A stretch of 64,000 bases of DNA from an uncultured Acidobacteriota bacterium (GTDB lineage: Bacteria > Acidobacteriota > Terriglobia > UBA7540): positions 1,568,001-1,632,000 of the forward strand of contig CAWDSK010000006.1 of assembly GCA_963804995.1 (NCBI GenBank), written 5' to 3'. Positions 845-49,645 of the stretch are shown here, piece by piece. Below the pieces are notes generated by a model. That model saw nothing but the letters and a program-made list of their open reading frames with translations. It was not told the origin of the DNA and ran no database searches. The position numbers were made by a program, and so were the translations under genes. Each line of letters begins with the position of its first letter. The first letter of the stretch is position 1.

Positions 845-1316
845 ACTTGTCGTGCCCAGACTTAAGCCACCCGGGGAAAAGTGCCTGCTTCTCCTTCCAA
901 ATCTTCCCGAACGGCCACGTTGGGTTGACTCCCTCGAATTTAAGCTCTGACGGCAATCACGCCGCTAATAGGGAGCAGTTTAGCACGAAGTCTCAGCCGT
1001 CACCAATTTGCGCACCCACGCTGGTTCCCCCTGTGCCATGCGGCCGGCCGCGGGGCATTAAAGGCAGAGATTGAGTGTCCCGTCGCACCGCTCCGGGCAA
1101 GCACTTACCTGTGCGCAGGGCAAGTTGGTGCACGGCAAGATGGCTGTGTGCTGATGATTTCTGTGATAACATCCTGCAACTGCCTCCGGCCTCAGCATGT
1201 AGTTTGTACAGGACGCGAATTACGCGCCTGTCCTTCAGGCGCGCCGCCCGGTCGCAGGATTGCGGCCCTGCTGTCTCGAACGGGGGAGGCAAGCCAACCA
1301 CTGGAGAGGGGTACAA

Positions 1317-2072
1317 ATGGAACAGACGACGGAACCCACAGGACTGCGGGGAAAAACTGAAAACTCACGGATAATAACCATCCTCCTGGTTGCCCTCTAT
1401 CTGATGGTTGGAGTGTTGATCGGATGGACCGTTACCAGCGAGCTGAGGAAGCCCGCACCGTTTCCAATCGACCAGGTCGAAGCGTATGCAGGGTGGTACT
1501 ACCGGAATCAAAAAACCACTTTCGAAAACACCTATTGGCGTGGCGTCCGAATTGACAAGTGTCCCTTGGATGCCTGGGTCTACCAGGAATTGATTTACGA
1601 GATCAAGCCCGATGTGCTGGTCGAAACCGGAACCTTGTTTGGCGGCAGCGCCTACTTTTATGCCACCCTGTTTGACTTGCTGAACCACGGCAGGGTTATC
1701 ACTGTTGATATCCTTGAGCAACCCGGCAGGCCGCAGCATCCCAGAATTACATATCTGCTGGGATCTTCGACCTCCGAGGAAATCTTACAGCAGATCAAAC
1801 AGTCGATTCGGCCGGGCGAGAAAGTTATGGTCTCGCTCGACTCTGATCACCACAAGGCCCACGTGCTCAAGGAATTGGCGCTCTACCACGATCTGGTGAC
1901 GGTGGGGAGTTACCTGGTGGTCGAAGACACGCGGCCAGATCCGAACTACCCAGCCGCTTGGGATGCCTTGCGCGAGTTCCTGAGGACAAACTCCGATTTC
2001 GTTCCTGATAAGAGCCGCGAAAAGTTTGGCTTTACCGTGTTTCCAAATGGATGGCTCAAGCGAATACGGTAA
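1317..2072 (+). CDS. CmcI/cephalosporin hydroxylase family SAM-dependent methyltransferase with N-terminal TM anchor
   Basis: Motifs W.GV.I.KCPLD.WVYQELIYEIKPD..VETGT..GGSA, VSLDSDH...HVL.EL and GSYLVVEDT; GGAGAGG RBS-like sequence before ATG 1317. Confidence 0.85.
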   Translation: MEQTTEPTGLRGKTENSRIITILLVALYLMVGVLIGWTVTSELRKPAPFPIDQVEAYAGWYYRNQKTTFENTYWRGVRIDKCPLDAWVYQELIYEIKPDVLVETGTLFGGSAYFYATLFDLLNHGRVITVDILEQPGRPQHPRITYLLGSSTSEEILQQIKQSIRPGEKVMVSLDSDHHKAHVLKELALYHDLVTVGSYLVVEDTRPDPNYPAAWDALREFLRTNSDFVPDKSREKFGFTVFPNGWLKRIR

Positions 2073-3748
2073 TGACTACGGACCTCCCAATTTCGGGACA
2101 GCAGGAAACGCACCGGCCTGAGATCTCCGCGGAAAATGTGCGCTCCACACTCACCCGGCGCTCGCGTTGGTGGTTTTGGGGGGCAATGGCGTTGGCCTTT
2201 CTGCGAGTGCTACCGGCGCTGCGCTTTCCGATTGGGCGTGACGAGGCTACCTACGCCGTTATCGGTCAGGGCTTGCTGCGCGGTCAACTCCTCTACCGCG
2301 ACCTTTGGGACAATAAACCACCCGGCATCTTCTATATCTACGCGGTCATCGTGAAGATTTTCGGCCCGGTGATGTGGTCAATCGGAGTTGTCGACATTCT
2401 CTGGGTAATCGCGATCTCCCTCTGCATCTTCTTCTTTGCCAAGCGGTACTTGGGCGCGCCGGCCGCTGCTGTTTCCGTGGTCTTCAACGTGGTTTGGCAC
2501 TCATCGTGGGGTTACATTCACGCCGCGCAGCCGGACGATTTCCTGACCTTGTTCGTGTTCCTCGCATACTTCATCTTGATGTCGGAAAAAGCGCGGACCT
2601 GGACGGTCAACTTTGCCGCGGGCCTGGTGTGCGGTGCGGCATTCTGGGTAAAGTACAACGGTGCGCCGTTCTTCCCGGTATTGACCTTCCTGCCTTATCT
2701 CGACTTCAGCCGCTTTGACGAGCTGCCGCGGCGGGTGCGCTTGACCATTCCCTGGCCGCTATGGTTCAAACGTACGCTGGCCGTCGTGGCCGGCTTCGTG
2801 CTCGTGCTCCTCGCCGTCATTGTTTACTTCTGGGCCGTGGGCGCGTTGCCTGCCCTGATGGAGGTGCAATTCGAAGTTCTGCCGCGCTATGGGTCAATCT
2901 TCCTCGAACATATGCCGCGCTACTATTACTTTGCCATCGCCTTGACTCGCCTGCATCTGGGAGCGTGGACCGAGGCTGCCTTCGGAGCAACTTTGCTGGT
3001 TGCCTGGTGGCGGCGGCAACTGCGTGTCGTCGCGCCCGTGCTGCTGATGGCCATCGCGGGGTTTATCTGCACGGCCTCGCAGATTCGATTCAGCTCCTAC
3101 GCTTTTGAATCGGCCTTCCCTTTCTTCGCCATGCTCTGGGGGTACTTGACCGTTCAACTTTACGAGGGCTTTGTCTACCTGCGTGGTTTCTTCAACCGCC
3201 GGGGGTGGCGTTTGGCGAGTATCCTTTTGTGGCTGGTGGCGGCGGAGGTGGTCTACTACCCGCTTCCGGAGTACGCGTTTAGCATCGGGGAAGATTACCG
3301 GGCCCTGGCGGACTGGGTGCATAACCCGCAACTATCATACGAAAATTATCTTTTCCCCCATCCCCTTGAGAAGCTGCATGACCAGTTGGCAATTATCAAC
3401 TATGTGGAAAAGAATTCGGCGCCGGGGGAGGGAGTCTTTGTGTGGGGCACGGCTCCGCTGATTAATTTTCTGACGCAGCGTCCAAACCCCAGCCGTTTTG
3501 TCTCCAACTTTGCGCTGATTTCTCCCTGGGGACCGGCGCGCTGGCGACAGGAATTGATCGGAGAATTGCACCGGAAGCCGCCACGATTCATCGTCGTAGC
3601 GCGTCACGATAACATCCCCGTGGTGACGCTTACGAATGATGATTCCGAGCAATGCCTGAAAAAGTACCCCGCCCTGGCTGCGTTGATTGCGGAGGGTTAC
3701 GAAACGGCCGAAGACCTGCAGGATTTTGAGGTTTACCAAGTTAAATGA
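2072..3748 (+). CDS. Glycosyltransferase family 39 / ArnT-like GT-C membrane protein (paralog 1)
   Basis: IGRDEATY...LYRDLWDNKPPGIFYIY motif, many TM helices, TAATG coupling with the upstream gene. Confidence 0.8.
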   Translation: MTTDLPISGQQETHRPEISAENVRSTLTRRSRWWFWGAMALAFLRVLPALRFPIGRDEATYAVIGQGLLRGQLLYRDLWDNKPPGIFYIYAVIVKIFGPVMWSIGVVDILWVIAISLCIFFFAKRYLGAPAAAVSVVFNVVWHSSWGYIHAAQPDDFLTLFVFLAYFILMSEKARTWTVNFAAGLVCGAAFWVKYNGAPFFPVLTFLPYLDFSRFDELPRRVRLTIPWPLWFKRTLAVVAGFVLVLLAVIVYFWAVGALPALMEVQFEVLPRYGSIFLEHMPRYYYFAIALTRLHLGAWTEAAFGATLLVAWWRRQLRVVAPVLLMAIAGFICTASQIRFSSYAFESAFPFFAMLWGYLTVQLYEGFVYLRGFFNRRGWRLASILLWLVAAEVVYYPLPEYAFSIGEDYRALADWVHNPQLSYENYLFPHPLEKLHDQLAIINYVEKNSAPGEGVFVWGTAPLINFLTQRPNPSRFVSNFALISPWGPARWRQELIGELHRKPPRFIVVARHDNIPVVTLTNDDSEQCLKKYPALAALIAEGYETAEDLQDFEVYQVK

Positions 3749-19859: not shown

Positions 19860-19968
19860 GTAGCGCGGTCCTCCGCCGTTGAGGTCCGCGGCTCTTGATG
19901 CGCATGAACCCCAAATCTCCACGCCCGCAACCGTAGCGCGGTCCTCCGCCGTTGGGGTCCGCGGTTCT
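19860..19968 (+). repeat. Two direct GTAG-type REPs (GTAGCGCGGTCCTCCGCCGTTGRGGTCCGCGG)
   Basis: Copies at 19860 and 19933; same family at ~22018, ~22125 (rc), ~36109 (rc) and ~51753 (rc). Confidence 0.8.
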
Positions 19969-22017: not shown

Positions 22018-22155
22018 GTAGCGCGGACCTCCGGTGTTGAGGTCCGCGGTTCTTTTTTCGATTCACGCTACCGAATCCTAGGGCAATTCCCATCGTTGAG
22101 ACCTACGGTTTTTCGCGTGAAGGGCCGCGCACCTCAACCCGGAGGTCCGCGCTAC
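22018..22155. repeat. REPIN (inverted GTAG-REP pair) overlapping the murB 3' end
   Basis: gtagcgcggacctcc...gaggtccgcgg and ccgcgcacctc...gaggtccgcgctac; spacer resembles 36016-36140. Confidence 0.8.
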
Positions 22156-33804: not shown

Positions 33805-34102
33805 GATGGTGGCGGGACCAACGTCCCGAAGTAGCGCCTGCTCAAATCACGGTGCAGATAATTGATTTTGTAACGCTGACCGGAACCTGTCCCGACCTCG
33901 GTCGGGAGGTCGGCACTGCATGACATGGCGATCATGCCGACCTAAAGGTTCTTGAATCCCTGGAATCCTCAAACGCCCACGTAACCCCTCACCCGTCCCG
34001 CCCCGGCTGATGAGAACGCCGGTTGCGGTCCACCCTCTCCCCCCGGAGAGGGCTGTTAATCAAGGTGGGTGCTCATTCGGCATACGAAGAGCAAGTGTAG
34101 CG

Positions 34103-36015
34103 GTTGCGGTAGGGATACCGGTTACCCGGTACCCCCCGCACGGATCCGTACGTGCGCTGGTTAGCGCATACGGCTCTTATCTCGGATGTGTGGCGGCGAA
34201 CCGTTGGGATGGCCAAGGATGCACAACGTGCGGAGCAGGCAACCAGCAGGCCGCAAGCTTCCCCAGTCGGTCCCAGTTGAGGCGGTGGCGTTGACTGCGT
34301 TGACGCAGTTGTGTTCGCCACAGTCGGGTCAACCGTTCCCGAAAGATTCGCAGGCGGTTGAGGTTTCCCGGTACCGCGTGATAGTTGAAGTAGCCTTGCA
34401 CGACCGACCGGAGCCATTTACCCGTATCCGCGATGGGATCGTGCCGACGCTGCCGGAGTTGTTGCTTGAGTTCCTGCAACTTCCCCCGCAGGCGCTTGCT
34501 GATCGTCTTCCGCTTCACGGTAAATTGCCCCCTCCGGTTCTTCCCGCTGATATGCGTGAAGCCCAGAAAGTCGAACGTCTCCGGCTTACCTTCTCCTCTC
34601 CGTTTCCGGTAAAGTTCGGCAAACGGCCCGAACTCGATCCGGCGCGTTTTGTCAGGATGCAGTTCCAATCCAAACTTCCCCACCCGCTCCCGGAAATCCT
34701 CCAGAAAGCGGTCGGCTTCCGTCTGCGATTGGAATCCAAGGACCGTATCGTCGGCATACCGCACCACGACCACGTCTCCCCGGGCGTGCTTCTTGCGCCA
34801 CGCCTGCACCCACAGGTCAAAGACGTAGTGCAGATAGATATTCGCCAGCAGGGGCGAGACCACCGCCCCTTGTGGCGTACCCATCTCCGTCTCCGACCAT
34901 TCGCCTTCCTCCCTCACCCCGGCTTTCAGCCATTTCTGGATGAGCCGGAGAATCCGGGGGTCGGCGACGCGATGCTGCACGAACTTGAGCATCCATTCGT
35001 GGGATATCGAATCGAAAAATCCACGAATGTCCGCGTCAAGAACGTAGTTCACGTGCTTCACCGTGAGCGCGTACGAGAGCGCGTCCAGCGCTTGATGCTG
35101 GCTGCATCCCGGTCGAAAGCCATACGAGAAGCCCAGAAAGTCTTCCTCGTAAATCGCATTGAGGATGGTGACCACGGCCTGTTGGACGATCTTGTCCTCC
35201 AGTGCCGCAACCCCCAACGGACGTTGCCGCCCGTCGCCTTTCGGGATATACGCCCTTCGCGAGGGCTTCGCTCGGAATGCTCCGCGGTGGACCCGGCTGT
35301 GCAGATCGACGAGTCGACCTTCCAGCCCGCTTTCATACTCCTGCCACGTCATGCCGTCTACTCCCGGTGCAGCTTTTCGCTTCAAGGCGTAAAAGCTTTC
35401 CCGCAGCAGATCGACCGTTAAGTGGTGGAGCAAGGCCGTGAACTTCATCTCCCTGTGTTCCTTCGCGGCTTTCCGCACACCCGCGAGTCCCTGGGACACG
35501 CGTGCCCCGCTCTGTGTCGGGTGCGTGTTAGGCCAACGGGTGTTCTCCTTGATCAGCGGCCTTCCCTCCTCATTCTCCGCCAACGGCTTCCCGTCTTTGT
35601 TCAAATGATTCATCGGTACTGTTCCGCTGTCCGACTCCTCGAGAGCGTGCAGGCGGGCTGTACGGCCATCGCCTTTTCCCGCCGTCCGGCCACGATCTAC
35701 GGCGGCCGGCGCCTCCGAGGTCTCCCGGTTCTCGTGCAGAAAGTGTCTAGGCGTGTCTGGGGTCTACGACTACGCAGGACTGTGCCGGAACTCGCGTTGG
35801 CGTCCCGGCCTCATGTTGCCTTCCGTTTAGTCTGAAAACGTCGGCGTCCTGATTGGACATTTTCGAAGCTCAATACCCAGCCCACCTATTCCCCTGTTTA
35901 CGCTTCACCGTGCGCCTCACGACGCCCAGCGCAAAACTCGGGGCCGAGTGGATCGCTGCTCCTTCCTCGTGAGAAATTTTCATTCTCTGCTTTCTGCCGG
36001 TTTATCCCGGCGCAC
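34103..36015 (-). mobile_element. Group II intron (1913 nt) inserted in a GTAG-REP
   Basis: 5' GTGCG at 36015; domain V GAGCCGTATGCGCT-AACC-AGCGCACGTACGGATC; domain VI ending ...CTACCGCAAC at 34103; joined flanks rebuild a REP hairpin. Confidence 0.93.
34177..35613 (-). CDS. ltrA: Group II intron reverse transcriptase/maturase, no endonuclease domain evident (true start uncertain)
   Basis: APGVDG, YIPK.DGRQRPLG...EDKIVQ, SYGFRPG, DADIRGFFD, GTPQG, RYADD and FDFLGF motifs; X domain with GYFNYH. Confidence 0.95.
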   Translation of the reverse strand: MNHLNKDGKPLAENEEGRPLIKENTRWPNTHPTQSGARVSQGLAGVRKAAKEHREMKFTALLHHLTVDLLRESFYALKRKAAPGVDGMTWQEYESGLEGRLVDLHSRVHRGAFRAKPSRRAYIPKGDGRQRPLGVAALEDKIVQQAVVTILNAIYEEDFLGFSYGFRPGCSQHQALDALSYALTVKHVNYVLDADIRGFFDSISHEWMLKFVQHRVADPRILRLIQKWLKAGVREEGEWSETEMGTPQGAVVSPLLANIYLHYVFDLWVQAWRKKHARGDVVVVRYADDTVLGFQSQTEADRFLEDFRERVGKFGLELHPDKTRRIEFGPFAELYRKRRGEGKPETFDFLGFTHISGKNRRGQFTVKRKTISKRLRGKLQELKQQLRQRRHDPIADTGKWLRSVVQGYFNYHAVPGNLNRLRIFRERLTRLWRTQLRQRSQRHRLNWDRLGKLAACWLPAPHVVHPWPSQRFAATHPR

Positions 36016-36140
36016 CAGACCTCCGCTTTTGAGGTCTGCAGTTCTTCATTAGACTCGCGCCACTGAATCCGAGGCCAGCTCCGCACGTTGAGATTTCGCG
36101 TGAAGAGCCGCGGACCTCAACAGCGGAGGTCCACGCTACA
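36016..36140. repeat. REPIN whose left REP is split by the intron
   Basis: cagacctcc-gcttt-tgaggtctgc and ccgcggacctc-aacagcg-gaggtccacgctaca. Confidence 0.8.
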
Positions 36141-49093: not shown

Positions 49094-49645
49094 ATGAGAG
49101 ATTGGCCACACAGTCCGGCGCATCGTTTTACGCCCGGGGGAACCTGCATGGTGACGGCGGGAACGTACCTCAAAGCGCCTTTCTTCCGAGGCGCGGACCG
49201 ATTGGAATACCTTAGCGGGATGCTCCTGGATCTTGCCGAAAAATACTTATGGCAGCTACAGGCCTGGGCGGTCTTTCCCAACCATTATCACTTCGTCGCC
49301 GTATCCCCGCCGCAGGGCGCGTCGCTCGTACAACTTACCCGGCATCTTCACGGACTTACCGCGATCGAAACCAATCGCCGGGACAACGCGGTGGGGCGTC
49401 ACGTTTGGTATCAATATTGGGATAAGGAATTGACCTTTCAGCGGTCCTACCTTGCACGCCTGAGTTACGTGCATAAGAACGCGGTTCATCACGGCCTGGT
49501 GCGGGAACCGTCTCTCTATCCCTGGTGCTCGGCGGGTTGGTTCCAGCGCGAGGCGGCAACGTCCTTTTACAAAACCGTGGTGGGGATGAAGACTGATCAA
49601 GTTCAGGTGACGGATGATTACACGGTCGACATCTCAGATATCTGA
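49094..49645 (+). CDS. REP-associated tyrosine (Y1 HUH) transposase, RAYT
   Basis: MVTAGT, AWAVFPNHYH, VWYQYWD and YVHKNAVHHGLV....YPWCS motifs; flanked by REPINs. Confidence 0.88.
   Translation: MRDWPHSPAHRFTPGGTCMVTAGTYLKAPFFRGADRLEYLSGMLLDLAEKYLWQLQAWAVFPNHYHFVAVSPPQGASLVQLTRHLHGLTAIETNRRDNAVGRHVWYQYWDKELTFQRSYLARLSYVHKNAVHHGLVREPSLYPWCSAGWFQREAATSFYKTVVGMKTDQVQVTDDYTVDISDI

Follow-up and report, generated by a model that had tools for sequence, protein, structure and literature searches.

An endonuclease-less group II intron occupies a single position within REP sequences in the genome of an uncultured Acidobacteriota bacterium

Introduction

In many bacteria, no intergenic repeats are more abundant than repetitive extragenic palindromic (REP) sequences. 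Among the group II introns, those of class C (IIC) have a short domain V with a CGC triad, and RmInt1 uses exon-binding site 2 (EBS2) in addition to EBS1 and EBS3. Here we describe a group II intron that interrupts a REP in a stretch of 64,000 nucleotides (hereafter, the window) from the genome of an uncultured Acidobacteriota bacterium (Terriglobia, UBA7540; assembly GCA_963804995.1, contig CAWDSK010000006.1, positions 1,568,001 to 1,632,000 of the forward strand). An earlier note, made from the letters of the window alone, had proposed that an endonuclease-less intron lineage uses REPs as abundant, harmless homing sites.

Several groups of introns have been described with which this element can be compared. 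IIC introns (B.h.I1, GsI-IIC, IIC-attC) are reported to insert after terminator stem-loops or into attC sites, with an intron-binding site 1 (IBS1) of 3-4 nt behind the stem-loop (PMC7923331). RmInt1 and RmInt2 of S. meliloti (class D, IIB3) lack an endonuclease and are described as homing mainly into the template for lagging-strand synthesis (PMC5894124). IIE and IIF introns (Cl.be.I2, Pe.th.I2, Ge.ur.I1) are presented as IIB-like, with a protein composed of reverse transcriptase (RT) and X domains only and a ribozyme of 450-700 nt. They are said to have a 5-nt instead of a 4-nt domain V loop, a well-defined EBS2 and an alpha' sequence tipping the DId3 stem-loop; EBS1 is decisive for their splicing and EBS2 is dispensable (Nagy et al., 2013, PMC3753933). 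So.us.I2, a class F intron of an acidobacterium, is listed as 1943 nt long and located in non-coding DNA (Toro & Martinez-Abarca, 2013, PMC3552965). According to a statement in a 2021 paper, upstream secondary structure has never been reported to matter for IIB introns.

REPs are landing sites for the insertion sequences ISPpu9, ISPpu10, ISPsy8, ISPa11 and IS1397 (Tobes & Pareja, 2006, PMC1525189). A row in a table of the same paper places 2/9 copies (22%) of a P. putida KT2440 group II intron at REPs, with no mechanism attached to it, and was the only link between group II introns and REPs that we found in the literature searched. Miura et al. (2022), found via the literature on Acidobacteria, hairpins and insertion sites, makes no mention of palindromes or repeats.

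The intron in the window resembles IIC introns, as described in the source cited above, in its RT without an endonuclease, compact ribozyme, EBS3, hairpin-associated non-coding targets and many copies, and in that no EBS2-IBS2 pairing was detected in it. Unlike IIC introns, it has a 34-nt domain V with an AGC triad and matches Rfam family RF02005. Its EBS1 pairs with 6-8 bases within the stem (six at -1 to -6, all in the 3' arm) instead of 3-4 bases behind it, its specificity is for one sequence family of hairpins, and its RT is as near to IIC proteins as to the chloroplast-like (CL) or mitochondrial-like (ML) types (1e-39 to 1e-41). It shares with RmInt1 and RmInt2 the lack of an endonuclease, a repeated target, a probable use of the lagging-strand template and many copies; however, the targets given for those introns are insertion sequences (the ends of ISRm2011-2 and ISRm17) rather than REPs, and the RT and RNA lineage is different. 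Likenesses to IIE and IIF introns are the IIB-like RNA, the RT-X protein, a ribozyme length within the 450-700 nt range, an unusual non-GNRA domain V loop and a decisive EBS1, whereas the passages on those introns that we draw on give a clear EBS2, which was not found here, and describe no REP or hairpin target. Like the REP-targeting insertion sequences, this is a mobile element that lands at REPs, but those are DNA transposons with protein-based recognition. In contrast to the minority association tabulated for the KT2440 intron, the association here is total and accounted for by RNA pairing.

Target site and copy number

When the flanks of the intron are rejoined on the plus strand they form GTAGCG|CAGACCTCCGCTTTTGAGGTCTGC, a REP in which the conserved head has been split from the stem (Table 1). 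On the intron strand, the 5' exon ends with GCAGACCUC-AAAAGCG-GAGGUCUG and the 3' exon begins with CGCUAC. The insertion point is one base pair within the stem: the first C of the 3' exon pairs with the stem-opening G, and base 34102 is both IBS3 and part of the REP stem. The interrupted REP is the left half of an inverted REP doublet (REPIN; 34097..36139 minus the intron). Its remainder (36016-36139) is identical at 100 of 124 bases to an intact REPIN (22024-22155), the inverted pair of which spans 22018-22155. The partner REP has the junction GGTCCA|CGCTAC, in which two IBS1 positions depart from the target, and carries no intron. The earlier note had recognized the precise insertion, the half REPIN with its familiar spacer, and further members of the REP family in the window, and all of these hold; the family members were located at 19860, 19933, 22018, 22155, 36139 and 51784.

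Table 1. Features of the intron, its target and the transposase genes near targeted REPs. Positions use the numbering of the 64-kb window unless prefixed C1-C9 (contigs of the same genome); the prefix L, used in the text, denotes loci of relatives.
Feature	Position	Strand	Evidence or remark
Complete group II intron	34103..36015	minus	1913 nt; 5' GUGCG ... CGCAAC 3'; boundaries match 60+ relatives
Domain I core	35760..35980	minus	Rfam group-II-D1D4-6 (RF02005), 170.2 bits, E = 1.9e-49
EBS1 5'-CAGACU-3' (intron 182-187)	35829..35834	minus	Loop of hairpin 35817-35845; covariation with exon -1..-6
EBS3, G (intron position 249)	35767	minus	Best-pairing alignment column for the first 3'-exon base
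Loop UAGAUC, EBS1 candidate of the earlier note	35694..35699	minus	Terminal loop of a variable hairpin in the domain II region, past domain I
Reverse transcriptase/maturase ORF, 478 aa, YADD	34177..35613	minus	Pfam RVT_1; TIGR04416 (NCBIfam) 343 bits, cut-off 300
Domains V and VI	34103..34178	minus	RF00029 39.2 bits, gathering score 40; alignment clear
REP head GTAGCG (3' exon CGCUAC on intron strand)	34097..34102	plus	Flank comparison; 39/39 copies with readable 3' flank begin CGC(T/C)A
IBS1 GGUCUG	36016..36021	minus	Last six bases of 5' exon and of REP-stem 3' arm
REP hairpin CAGACCTC-CGCTTTT-GAGGTCTG(C)	36016..36039	plus	Parted from its own head by the intron
REPIN spacer	36040..36109		Alignable to spacer of intact REPIN 22018-22155
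Partner REP of REPIN, inverted (GTAGCG-TGGACCTC...)	36110..36139	minus	Empty
Y1 transposase (RAYT-type) gene	C5:58461-58766		PF01797 30.9 bits; targeted REPs within 300 nt
Y1 transposase (RAYT-type) gene	C6:722534-722794		PF01797 35.7 bits; targeted REPs within 300 nt

The genome (7.55 Mb, nine contigs) contains 38 full-length copies of the intron and two that are cut by contig ends, at 99.6-100% identity. Because the copies differ from that in the window by only 0-7 nt, with intact open reading frames (ORFs) in 37/38 full-length copies and identical EBS1 hairpins in 38/38, the sequences point to a recent burst. The collection of copies and comparison of flanks that the earlier note had suggested returned the same REP position in every case: all 37 copies readable on both sides sit at ..GTC(T/C)G|CGC(T/C)A. 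Their junctions are GGTCTG|CGCTAC (19 copies), GGTCTG|CGCCAG (12), GGTCCG|CGCTAC (4), AGTCTG|CGCCAG (1) and GGTCTG|CGCCAT (1). A hairpin (8-bp arms, at most one mismatch) precedes 36 of the 38 copies that have at least 30 nt of 5' flank, and the remaining two are preceded by decayed hairpins. Loops, spacers and the sequence outside the REP vary among copies. Thus, the copies are independent insertions.

Two REP families are targeted, one with head GTAGCG and stem GACCTC and the other with head CTGGCG and stem GACCCC. Together they offer 159 empty sites, compared to about 40 that are occupied. Other families with the GTAGCG head are never occupied in this genome (GTAGCG followed by GCGAGTTT, 120 copies; by CGGTCCCC, 115; by GCGGGTTT, 92). 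Occupancy follows IBS1, as 32/125 sites with a perfect match are filled and 4/65 of those with GGTCCG, which places an A-C mismatch at -2.

Four contig ends fall in or within a few bases of intron copies (C2:6-647, C7:1-1904, C9:388252-390162 and C6:2170751-2172661). About 40 identical 1.9-kb copies appear to break this assembly, and the intron limits the assembly of such genomes. On C7 (C7:1-3886) two copies form a tandem, 70 nt apart in neighbouring REPs. A 113-nt fragment (C2:652259-652371), 86% identical to the 5' end of the intron, is what remains of an older copy or a related one.

Exon-binding sites

We scanned prokaryotic genomes, one for each species, and confirmed 565 relatives of the RT. 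Of these 565 loci, the best 79 (63-93% identity) are almost all from Acidobacteriota records; we mapped their intron ends using nhmmer and aligned the first 420 nt of each. Domain I includes a hairpin, GCCGACG-UUUUCAGACUAAA-CGGAAGGC, whose loop sequence tracks the 5' exon across relatives. There are 40 distinct combinations of loop and exon, with 21 distinct EBS1 hexamers, and 35/40 pair at six of six positions. Mean pairing is 5.83/6, as compared with 3.36 for shuffled exons (maximum 4.05 over 1000 shuffles). Given this near-perfect covariation with the last six bases of the 5' exon, we identify intron positions 182-187 as EBS1. Examples, which stand for many further matched pairs in the alignment, are CAGAC(U) with (G)GUCUG in the window copy, CGGAC with GUCCG (L039), UGCAUUGG with CCAAUGCA (L035), CCAAUU with AAUUGG (L031), UGGUCU with AGACCA (L103) and CUAACAGG with CCUGUUGG (L076).

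The first base of the 3' exon is paired with the EBS3 column in 98% of 54 introns, with five pair types; the EBS3 is of the IIB/IIC kind. A pairing of the IIA delta type beside EBS1 was considered and rejected, as it would join the U preceding CAGAC to the C that begins the 3' exon, and these cannot pair; EBS3 accounts for the latter position.

An EBS2 was not found. In a scan for 5-mer complementarity between all alignment windows and exon positions -6..-18, at most 20/54 introns matched, similar to shuffle maxima of 19-24. Column searches near a variable internal loop (intron 150-162) and in the loop of a second hairpin gave only a weak signal between intron position 157 and exon position -8 (79%). 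This second hairpin, which has a large conserved loop, comes after the EBS1 hairpin.

Recognition beyond IBS1 and the role of the hairpin

The sequence GGTCTGC occurs 1438 times without an intron in this genome, and REPs alone are hit. On contigs C3-C6, none of the 61 favourable sites on the tail side of the same palindromic stem (GGTCTG|CG followed by GT, GC or AT) is occupied. Since these sites offer GGTCTG|CG in the same hairpin and are nevertheless empty, positions +3 to +5, within the REP head, matter as well. Targets of relatives, such as CGCTAC, CGCCAG, CTCATC and CGCCAA, repeatedly show C at +1 and +3 and A at +5, and positions +3 to +5 are probably read by the protein.

We identified 33 empty sites that match the full 11-nt target but lack a good hairpin. 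None of the 11 that are favourably oriented is filled, compared to 26/47 sites with a hairpin (p = 6e-4), which hints that the REP context or the hairpin aids insertion. An identical 40-nt stretch ending ...GAGGTCAAGGTCTG|CGCCATCT is present in 10 copies (e.g., on C1, C2, C3, C4, C5 and C6) as part of another repeated element. These ten copies match the 11-nt target, have no hairpin, and none is occupied.

The particle could mainly read the DNA stem-loop structure, with pairing secondary, as IIC introns do after terminators and at attC sites. Such recognition would fit the hairpins at 36/38 occupied sites and the unfilled hairpin-less matches, but IBS1 is itself part of the stem, and pairing requires the stem to open; moreover, both the tail side of the same hairpin and the hairpins of other GTAGCG-head families are unoccupied. 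The compact ribozyme (476 nt) and the lack of a detected EBS2 are likewise reminiscent of IIC introns, whereas neither domain V nor the Rfam family resembles that of IIC introns, and the distance from hairpin to insertion point differs among relatives. Overall, we consider a primarily structural mode of recognition unlikely.

Replication-strand bias

The gene for dnaA is at C2:124231, beside the minimum of cumulative GC skew at C2:120000, and the orientation of introns switches at this minimum: both copies on its left are minus-strand and all three on its right plus-strand. GC skew is negative throughout C3, C4 and C6 and positive in C5, and a weak gene-strand bias is concordant. With replication oriented in this way, 31 occupied sites on contigs C2-C6 are co-directional with the fork and one is opposite; the other 8/40 copies are on contigs without an orientation. 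The empty GGTCTG head-side sites, for comparison, include 24 that are co-directional and 56 that are opposite (Fisher, 1.5e-11). More than 200 near-identical targets are available in both orientations, with those facing one way about half filled and those facing the other way almost not at all. In the favourable orientation, occupancy is about 40% of all matching sites, or 56% if GGTCTG-type empty sites alone form the base.

An intron co-directional with the fork is in the parental strand that templates lagging-strand synthesis, so the bias fits priming by the nascent lagging strand. Alternatively, the asymmetry may have arisen after insertion by selection or transcription, for example if expression or tolerance is limited to copies co-oriented with leading-strand genes, and it would then be uninformative on insertion itself. 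Splicing does need read-through transcription, and genes are slightly biased toward the same strand, but the gene-strand bias is 47-53% compared to 31:1 for the intron. The upstream ORF is co-oriented at 16/33 copies with a called ORF, which is no enrichment; these calls (based on ORFs and GC3) are crude and noisy, with the window's own upstream gene miscalled, and they allow no conclusion. An origin of the asymmetry after insertion seems quite improbable to us.

Intron structure and classification

The intron has the ends expected of group II introns (5' GUGYG, 3' AY), as do its relatives. These ends, domains V and VI, an exon-pairing domain I and an RT/maturase ORF in domain IV are together the features of mobile, ORF-containing group II introns. 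A Pfam scan of the encoded protein returned nothing besides RVT_1, i.e., no DNA-binding or endonuclease domain, consistent with the earlier reading of the RT as endonuclease-less. The RNA outside the ORF totals 476 nt (1913 - 1437).

Domain V is 34 nt long, begins with GAGCC, and has an AGC triad, a 2-nt bulge and the loop UAACCA; domains V and VI are conserved in relatives, and the RF00029 alignment agrees with the earlier description of this domain as unlike that of class C. Its tip, GCGC-UAACCA-GCGC, can be read as a 6-nt loop, or as a 4-nt loop given U-A closure, and 5-nt loops (e.g., UAAUG) occur in four more distant relatives. Domain VI has a bulged A within CCCUACCGC. The G-U wobble that is usual below the catalytic triad is replaced by G-A in this domain V (34145-34178; GAGCC.../...GGAUC). 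In many relatives the triad is AAC and the opposing strand is altered to ...GGGUC.

Domain V and the length of IBS1 place the intron outside class C. Its RNA is IIB-like (RF02005), and the small size, RT-X protein, odd domain V loop and dominant EBS1 fit class E or F, to which it probably belongs. In comparison with solved structures of group II RTs, the protein is about equally distant from the CL, IIC and ML types (~1e-33 to 1e-41), from which no class can be assigned. The nearest named relatives of the RT (58-61% identity over the full length) are unclassified ltrA genes on replicons of P. putida, S. meliloti, Ralstonia and Acidithiobacillus. We examined the introns around two of these, in P. 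putida and S. meliloti, and both also match RF02005. In the literature, group-II-D1D4-6 was found only in the Rfam 15 paper, which maps it to no class, and the main text of Weinberg (2010) is without D1D4 motifs. When the rhizobial relative was compared with the published class E remnant S.me.I4, the plasmid of that strain was not found among the matches listed.

Relatives in other genomes

Relatives were also found at repeated elements. One other genome (G006) contains six identical copies of an intron 92-93% related to that in the window. Their EBS1 is CGGAC, and all six are in REPs of the form GACCCC...GGG(T/G/C)CCG|CGCT(A/G). The insertion sites of more distant relatives read ...ATCGCCATTACA|CTCAT..., or lie on the other strand of that palindromic element. 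In 4/5 genomes searched, this sequence forms a dispersed repeat of 28-82 copies per genome, compared to 3-5 for a reversed control; the fifth genome, in which the intron has a different EBS1, has 5 copies compared to 0 for the control.

In a sister subfamily (L126-L129 and L131 in G006; L032, L042), the 5' ends are GAAAGCG, GAUAGCG and GUAAGCG rather than GUGCG, and EBS1 fits the exon once the splice site is set two bases upstream of the aligned start. The two G006 copies of this subfamily that show a REP head (L129, L131) are inserted at the tail side of its hairpin. ORF-less derivatives with canonical ends accompany full-length copies in two further genomes of Acidobacteriota (L034:1109-1758, 650 nt, and L093:3400-4052, 653 nt), and these derivatives are presumably mobilised in trans. 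L081 is a tandem, with one copy at 1099-3011 and a second that starts at 3012, directly at the 3' end of the first.

Association with RAYT genes

The genome encodes 14 matches to the Y1 transposase family PF01797 (Y1_Tnp), several of them flanked by their own REP family, as is typical of REP-associated tyrosine transposases (RAYTs). The two targeted REP families flank the C5 and C6 genes listed in Table 1, and beside each gene one such REP holds an intron; other Y1 genes adjoin other REP families. Dispersed copies of head plus hairpin, inverted pairs, and a Y1 gene amid its own REPs together mark the target as a REPIN-RAYT system. The idea that the targeted REPs are spread by RAYTs is thus supported as a genomic association.

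Beside the C5 gene (C5:59056-59551), REPs of the CAGACCTC type alternate with opposite REPs of the CGGTCCCC type, their heads separated by 35 nt. The array seems to consist of mixed REPINs from two stem families, of which one alone is usable by the intron. In the window, a weak Y1 match (49199-49453, plus strand, 23.7 bits) is just above the cut-off, and no REP of the scanned head types lies within 1.5 kb of it. Possibly this is a HUH gene that has decayed or is unrelated.

Discussion

We consider it highly probable that this is an active, or very recently active, endonuclease-less group II intron with an IIB-like ribozyme that retrohomes to one REP position, the junction of head and stem on the bottom strand. 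The head at this junction is conserved (GTAGCG or CTGGCG). EBS1 (CAGACU), a near-copy of the 5' arm of the REP stem (CAGACC), pairs with the 3' arm (GGUCUG), and EBS3 (G249) with the stem-closing C. The head bases C+3 and A+5 are needed as well, probably as bases read by the protein. The intron RNA would then reverse-splice into the template of lagging-strand synthesis at the replication fork, where the nascent lagging strand could prime cDNA synthesis. Lying between genes in hundreds of copies, REPs would provide many sites of low cost to the host. Across the Acidobacteriota, the same clade of introns has probably altered EBS1 to fit the dispersed repeat of each host.

Several observations weigh against this account or parts of it. 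Two public DNA sequencing runs (X1 and X2) and two RNA-library runs (X15 and X16) yielded only fragmented metagenome contigs of the intron, none of which bridges it or presents a spliced or empty site, and they are uninformative on splicing and expression; contigs from X1 and X2 that end at 36015 do continue into other flanks, consistent with the 5' boundary. There is an A-G mismatch at -4 in 4/6 of the G006 sites. Fork direction was taken from weak GC skew, one dnaA gene and the weak gene-strand bias noted above, with 8/40 copies unoriented. The class was judged on features of the RNA and protein. A need for the hairpin is suggested, but some of the 11 non-hairpin sites may lie in genes, from which insertions would be lost. 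Finally, the distance to the hairpin varies among relatives: the target is in the stem itself here, about 5 nt downstream of the hairpin in one group, and in the loop region in another. This variation argues against one conserved structural reading and favours retargeting by change of EBS1.

Instead of retrohoming, a single intron-bearing REPIN could have been multiplied passively, by RAYT activity or duplication. A few copies are indeed found in REP arrays that have been duplicated locally (at C3:1078809 and C6:722217 the 5' flank recurs as the 3' flank, and two C7 copies are 70 nt apart). However, the occupied REPs belong to two families with differing heads and stems and many loops and spacers, sequence outside the ~30-nt REP is unrelated among copies, and a strand bias of 31:1, as compared with 24:56 in empty REPs, is not expected from the copying of REPINs. 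Passive spread of this kind is very improbable.

The loop UAGAUC, which the earlier note had taken for EBS1 with the preceding G as partner of the first 3'-exon base, is located as described and can pair with GGUCUG in the window copy (with two G-U pairs), but it is almost certainly not the guide: in the RNAalifold consensus it tips the first hairpin past the closing helix of domain I, so that the proposed folding of domain I speaks against it; this hairpin region is anything from 23 to 87 nt long in relatives and holds a 6-mer that pairs with the intron's own IBS1 in 2/44 distinct combinations (the window's included), no better than chance; relatives of 92-93% identity (IBS1 GGUCCG or GGCCCG) are without the complementarity; and a different loop, CAGACU, covaries almost perfectly with the exon, while the role given to the preceding G falls to EBS3. 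With CAGACU in place of UAGAUC, the larger idea of REP homing by EBS1 pairing survives.

A safe, repeated landing site, pairing by EBS and lagging-strand priming are all known; REPs as a class of target for a lineage other than IIC are new in the literature searched. This lineage would be dedicated to REPs and would read them by RNA pairing, rather than by the IIC rule of structure plus 3 nt. With its many targets in both orientations, this genome also provides unusually clean genomic evidence for lagging-strand-primed retrohoming.

It is possible, although we rather doubt it, that the clade has specialised as a hyperparasite on REPIN-RAYT systems, with a guide loop that copies one arm of the REP stem. 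The intron would need an extruded or single-stranded REP on the lagging-strand template. Insertion between the GTAG head and the hairpin would split the recognition site of the RAYT, so that every insertion would kill a REP. If so, intron, REP and RAYT would be in three-way co-evolution: EBS1 would track REP variants across the Acidobacteriota, and the diversification of REPs into escape families would be partly intron-driven. The system may be a tractable one in which to ask whether hairpin extrusion helps endonuclease-less introns, and how insertion affects the biology of REPINs and RAYTs.

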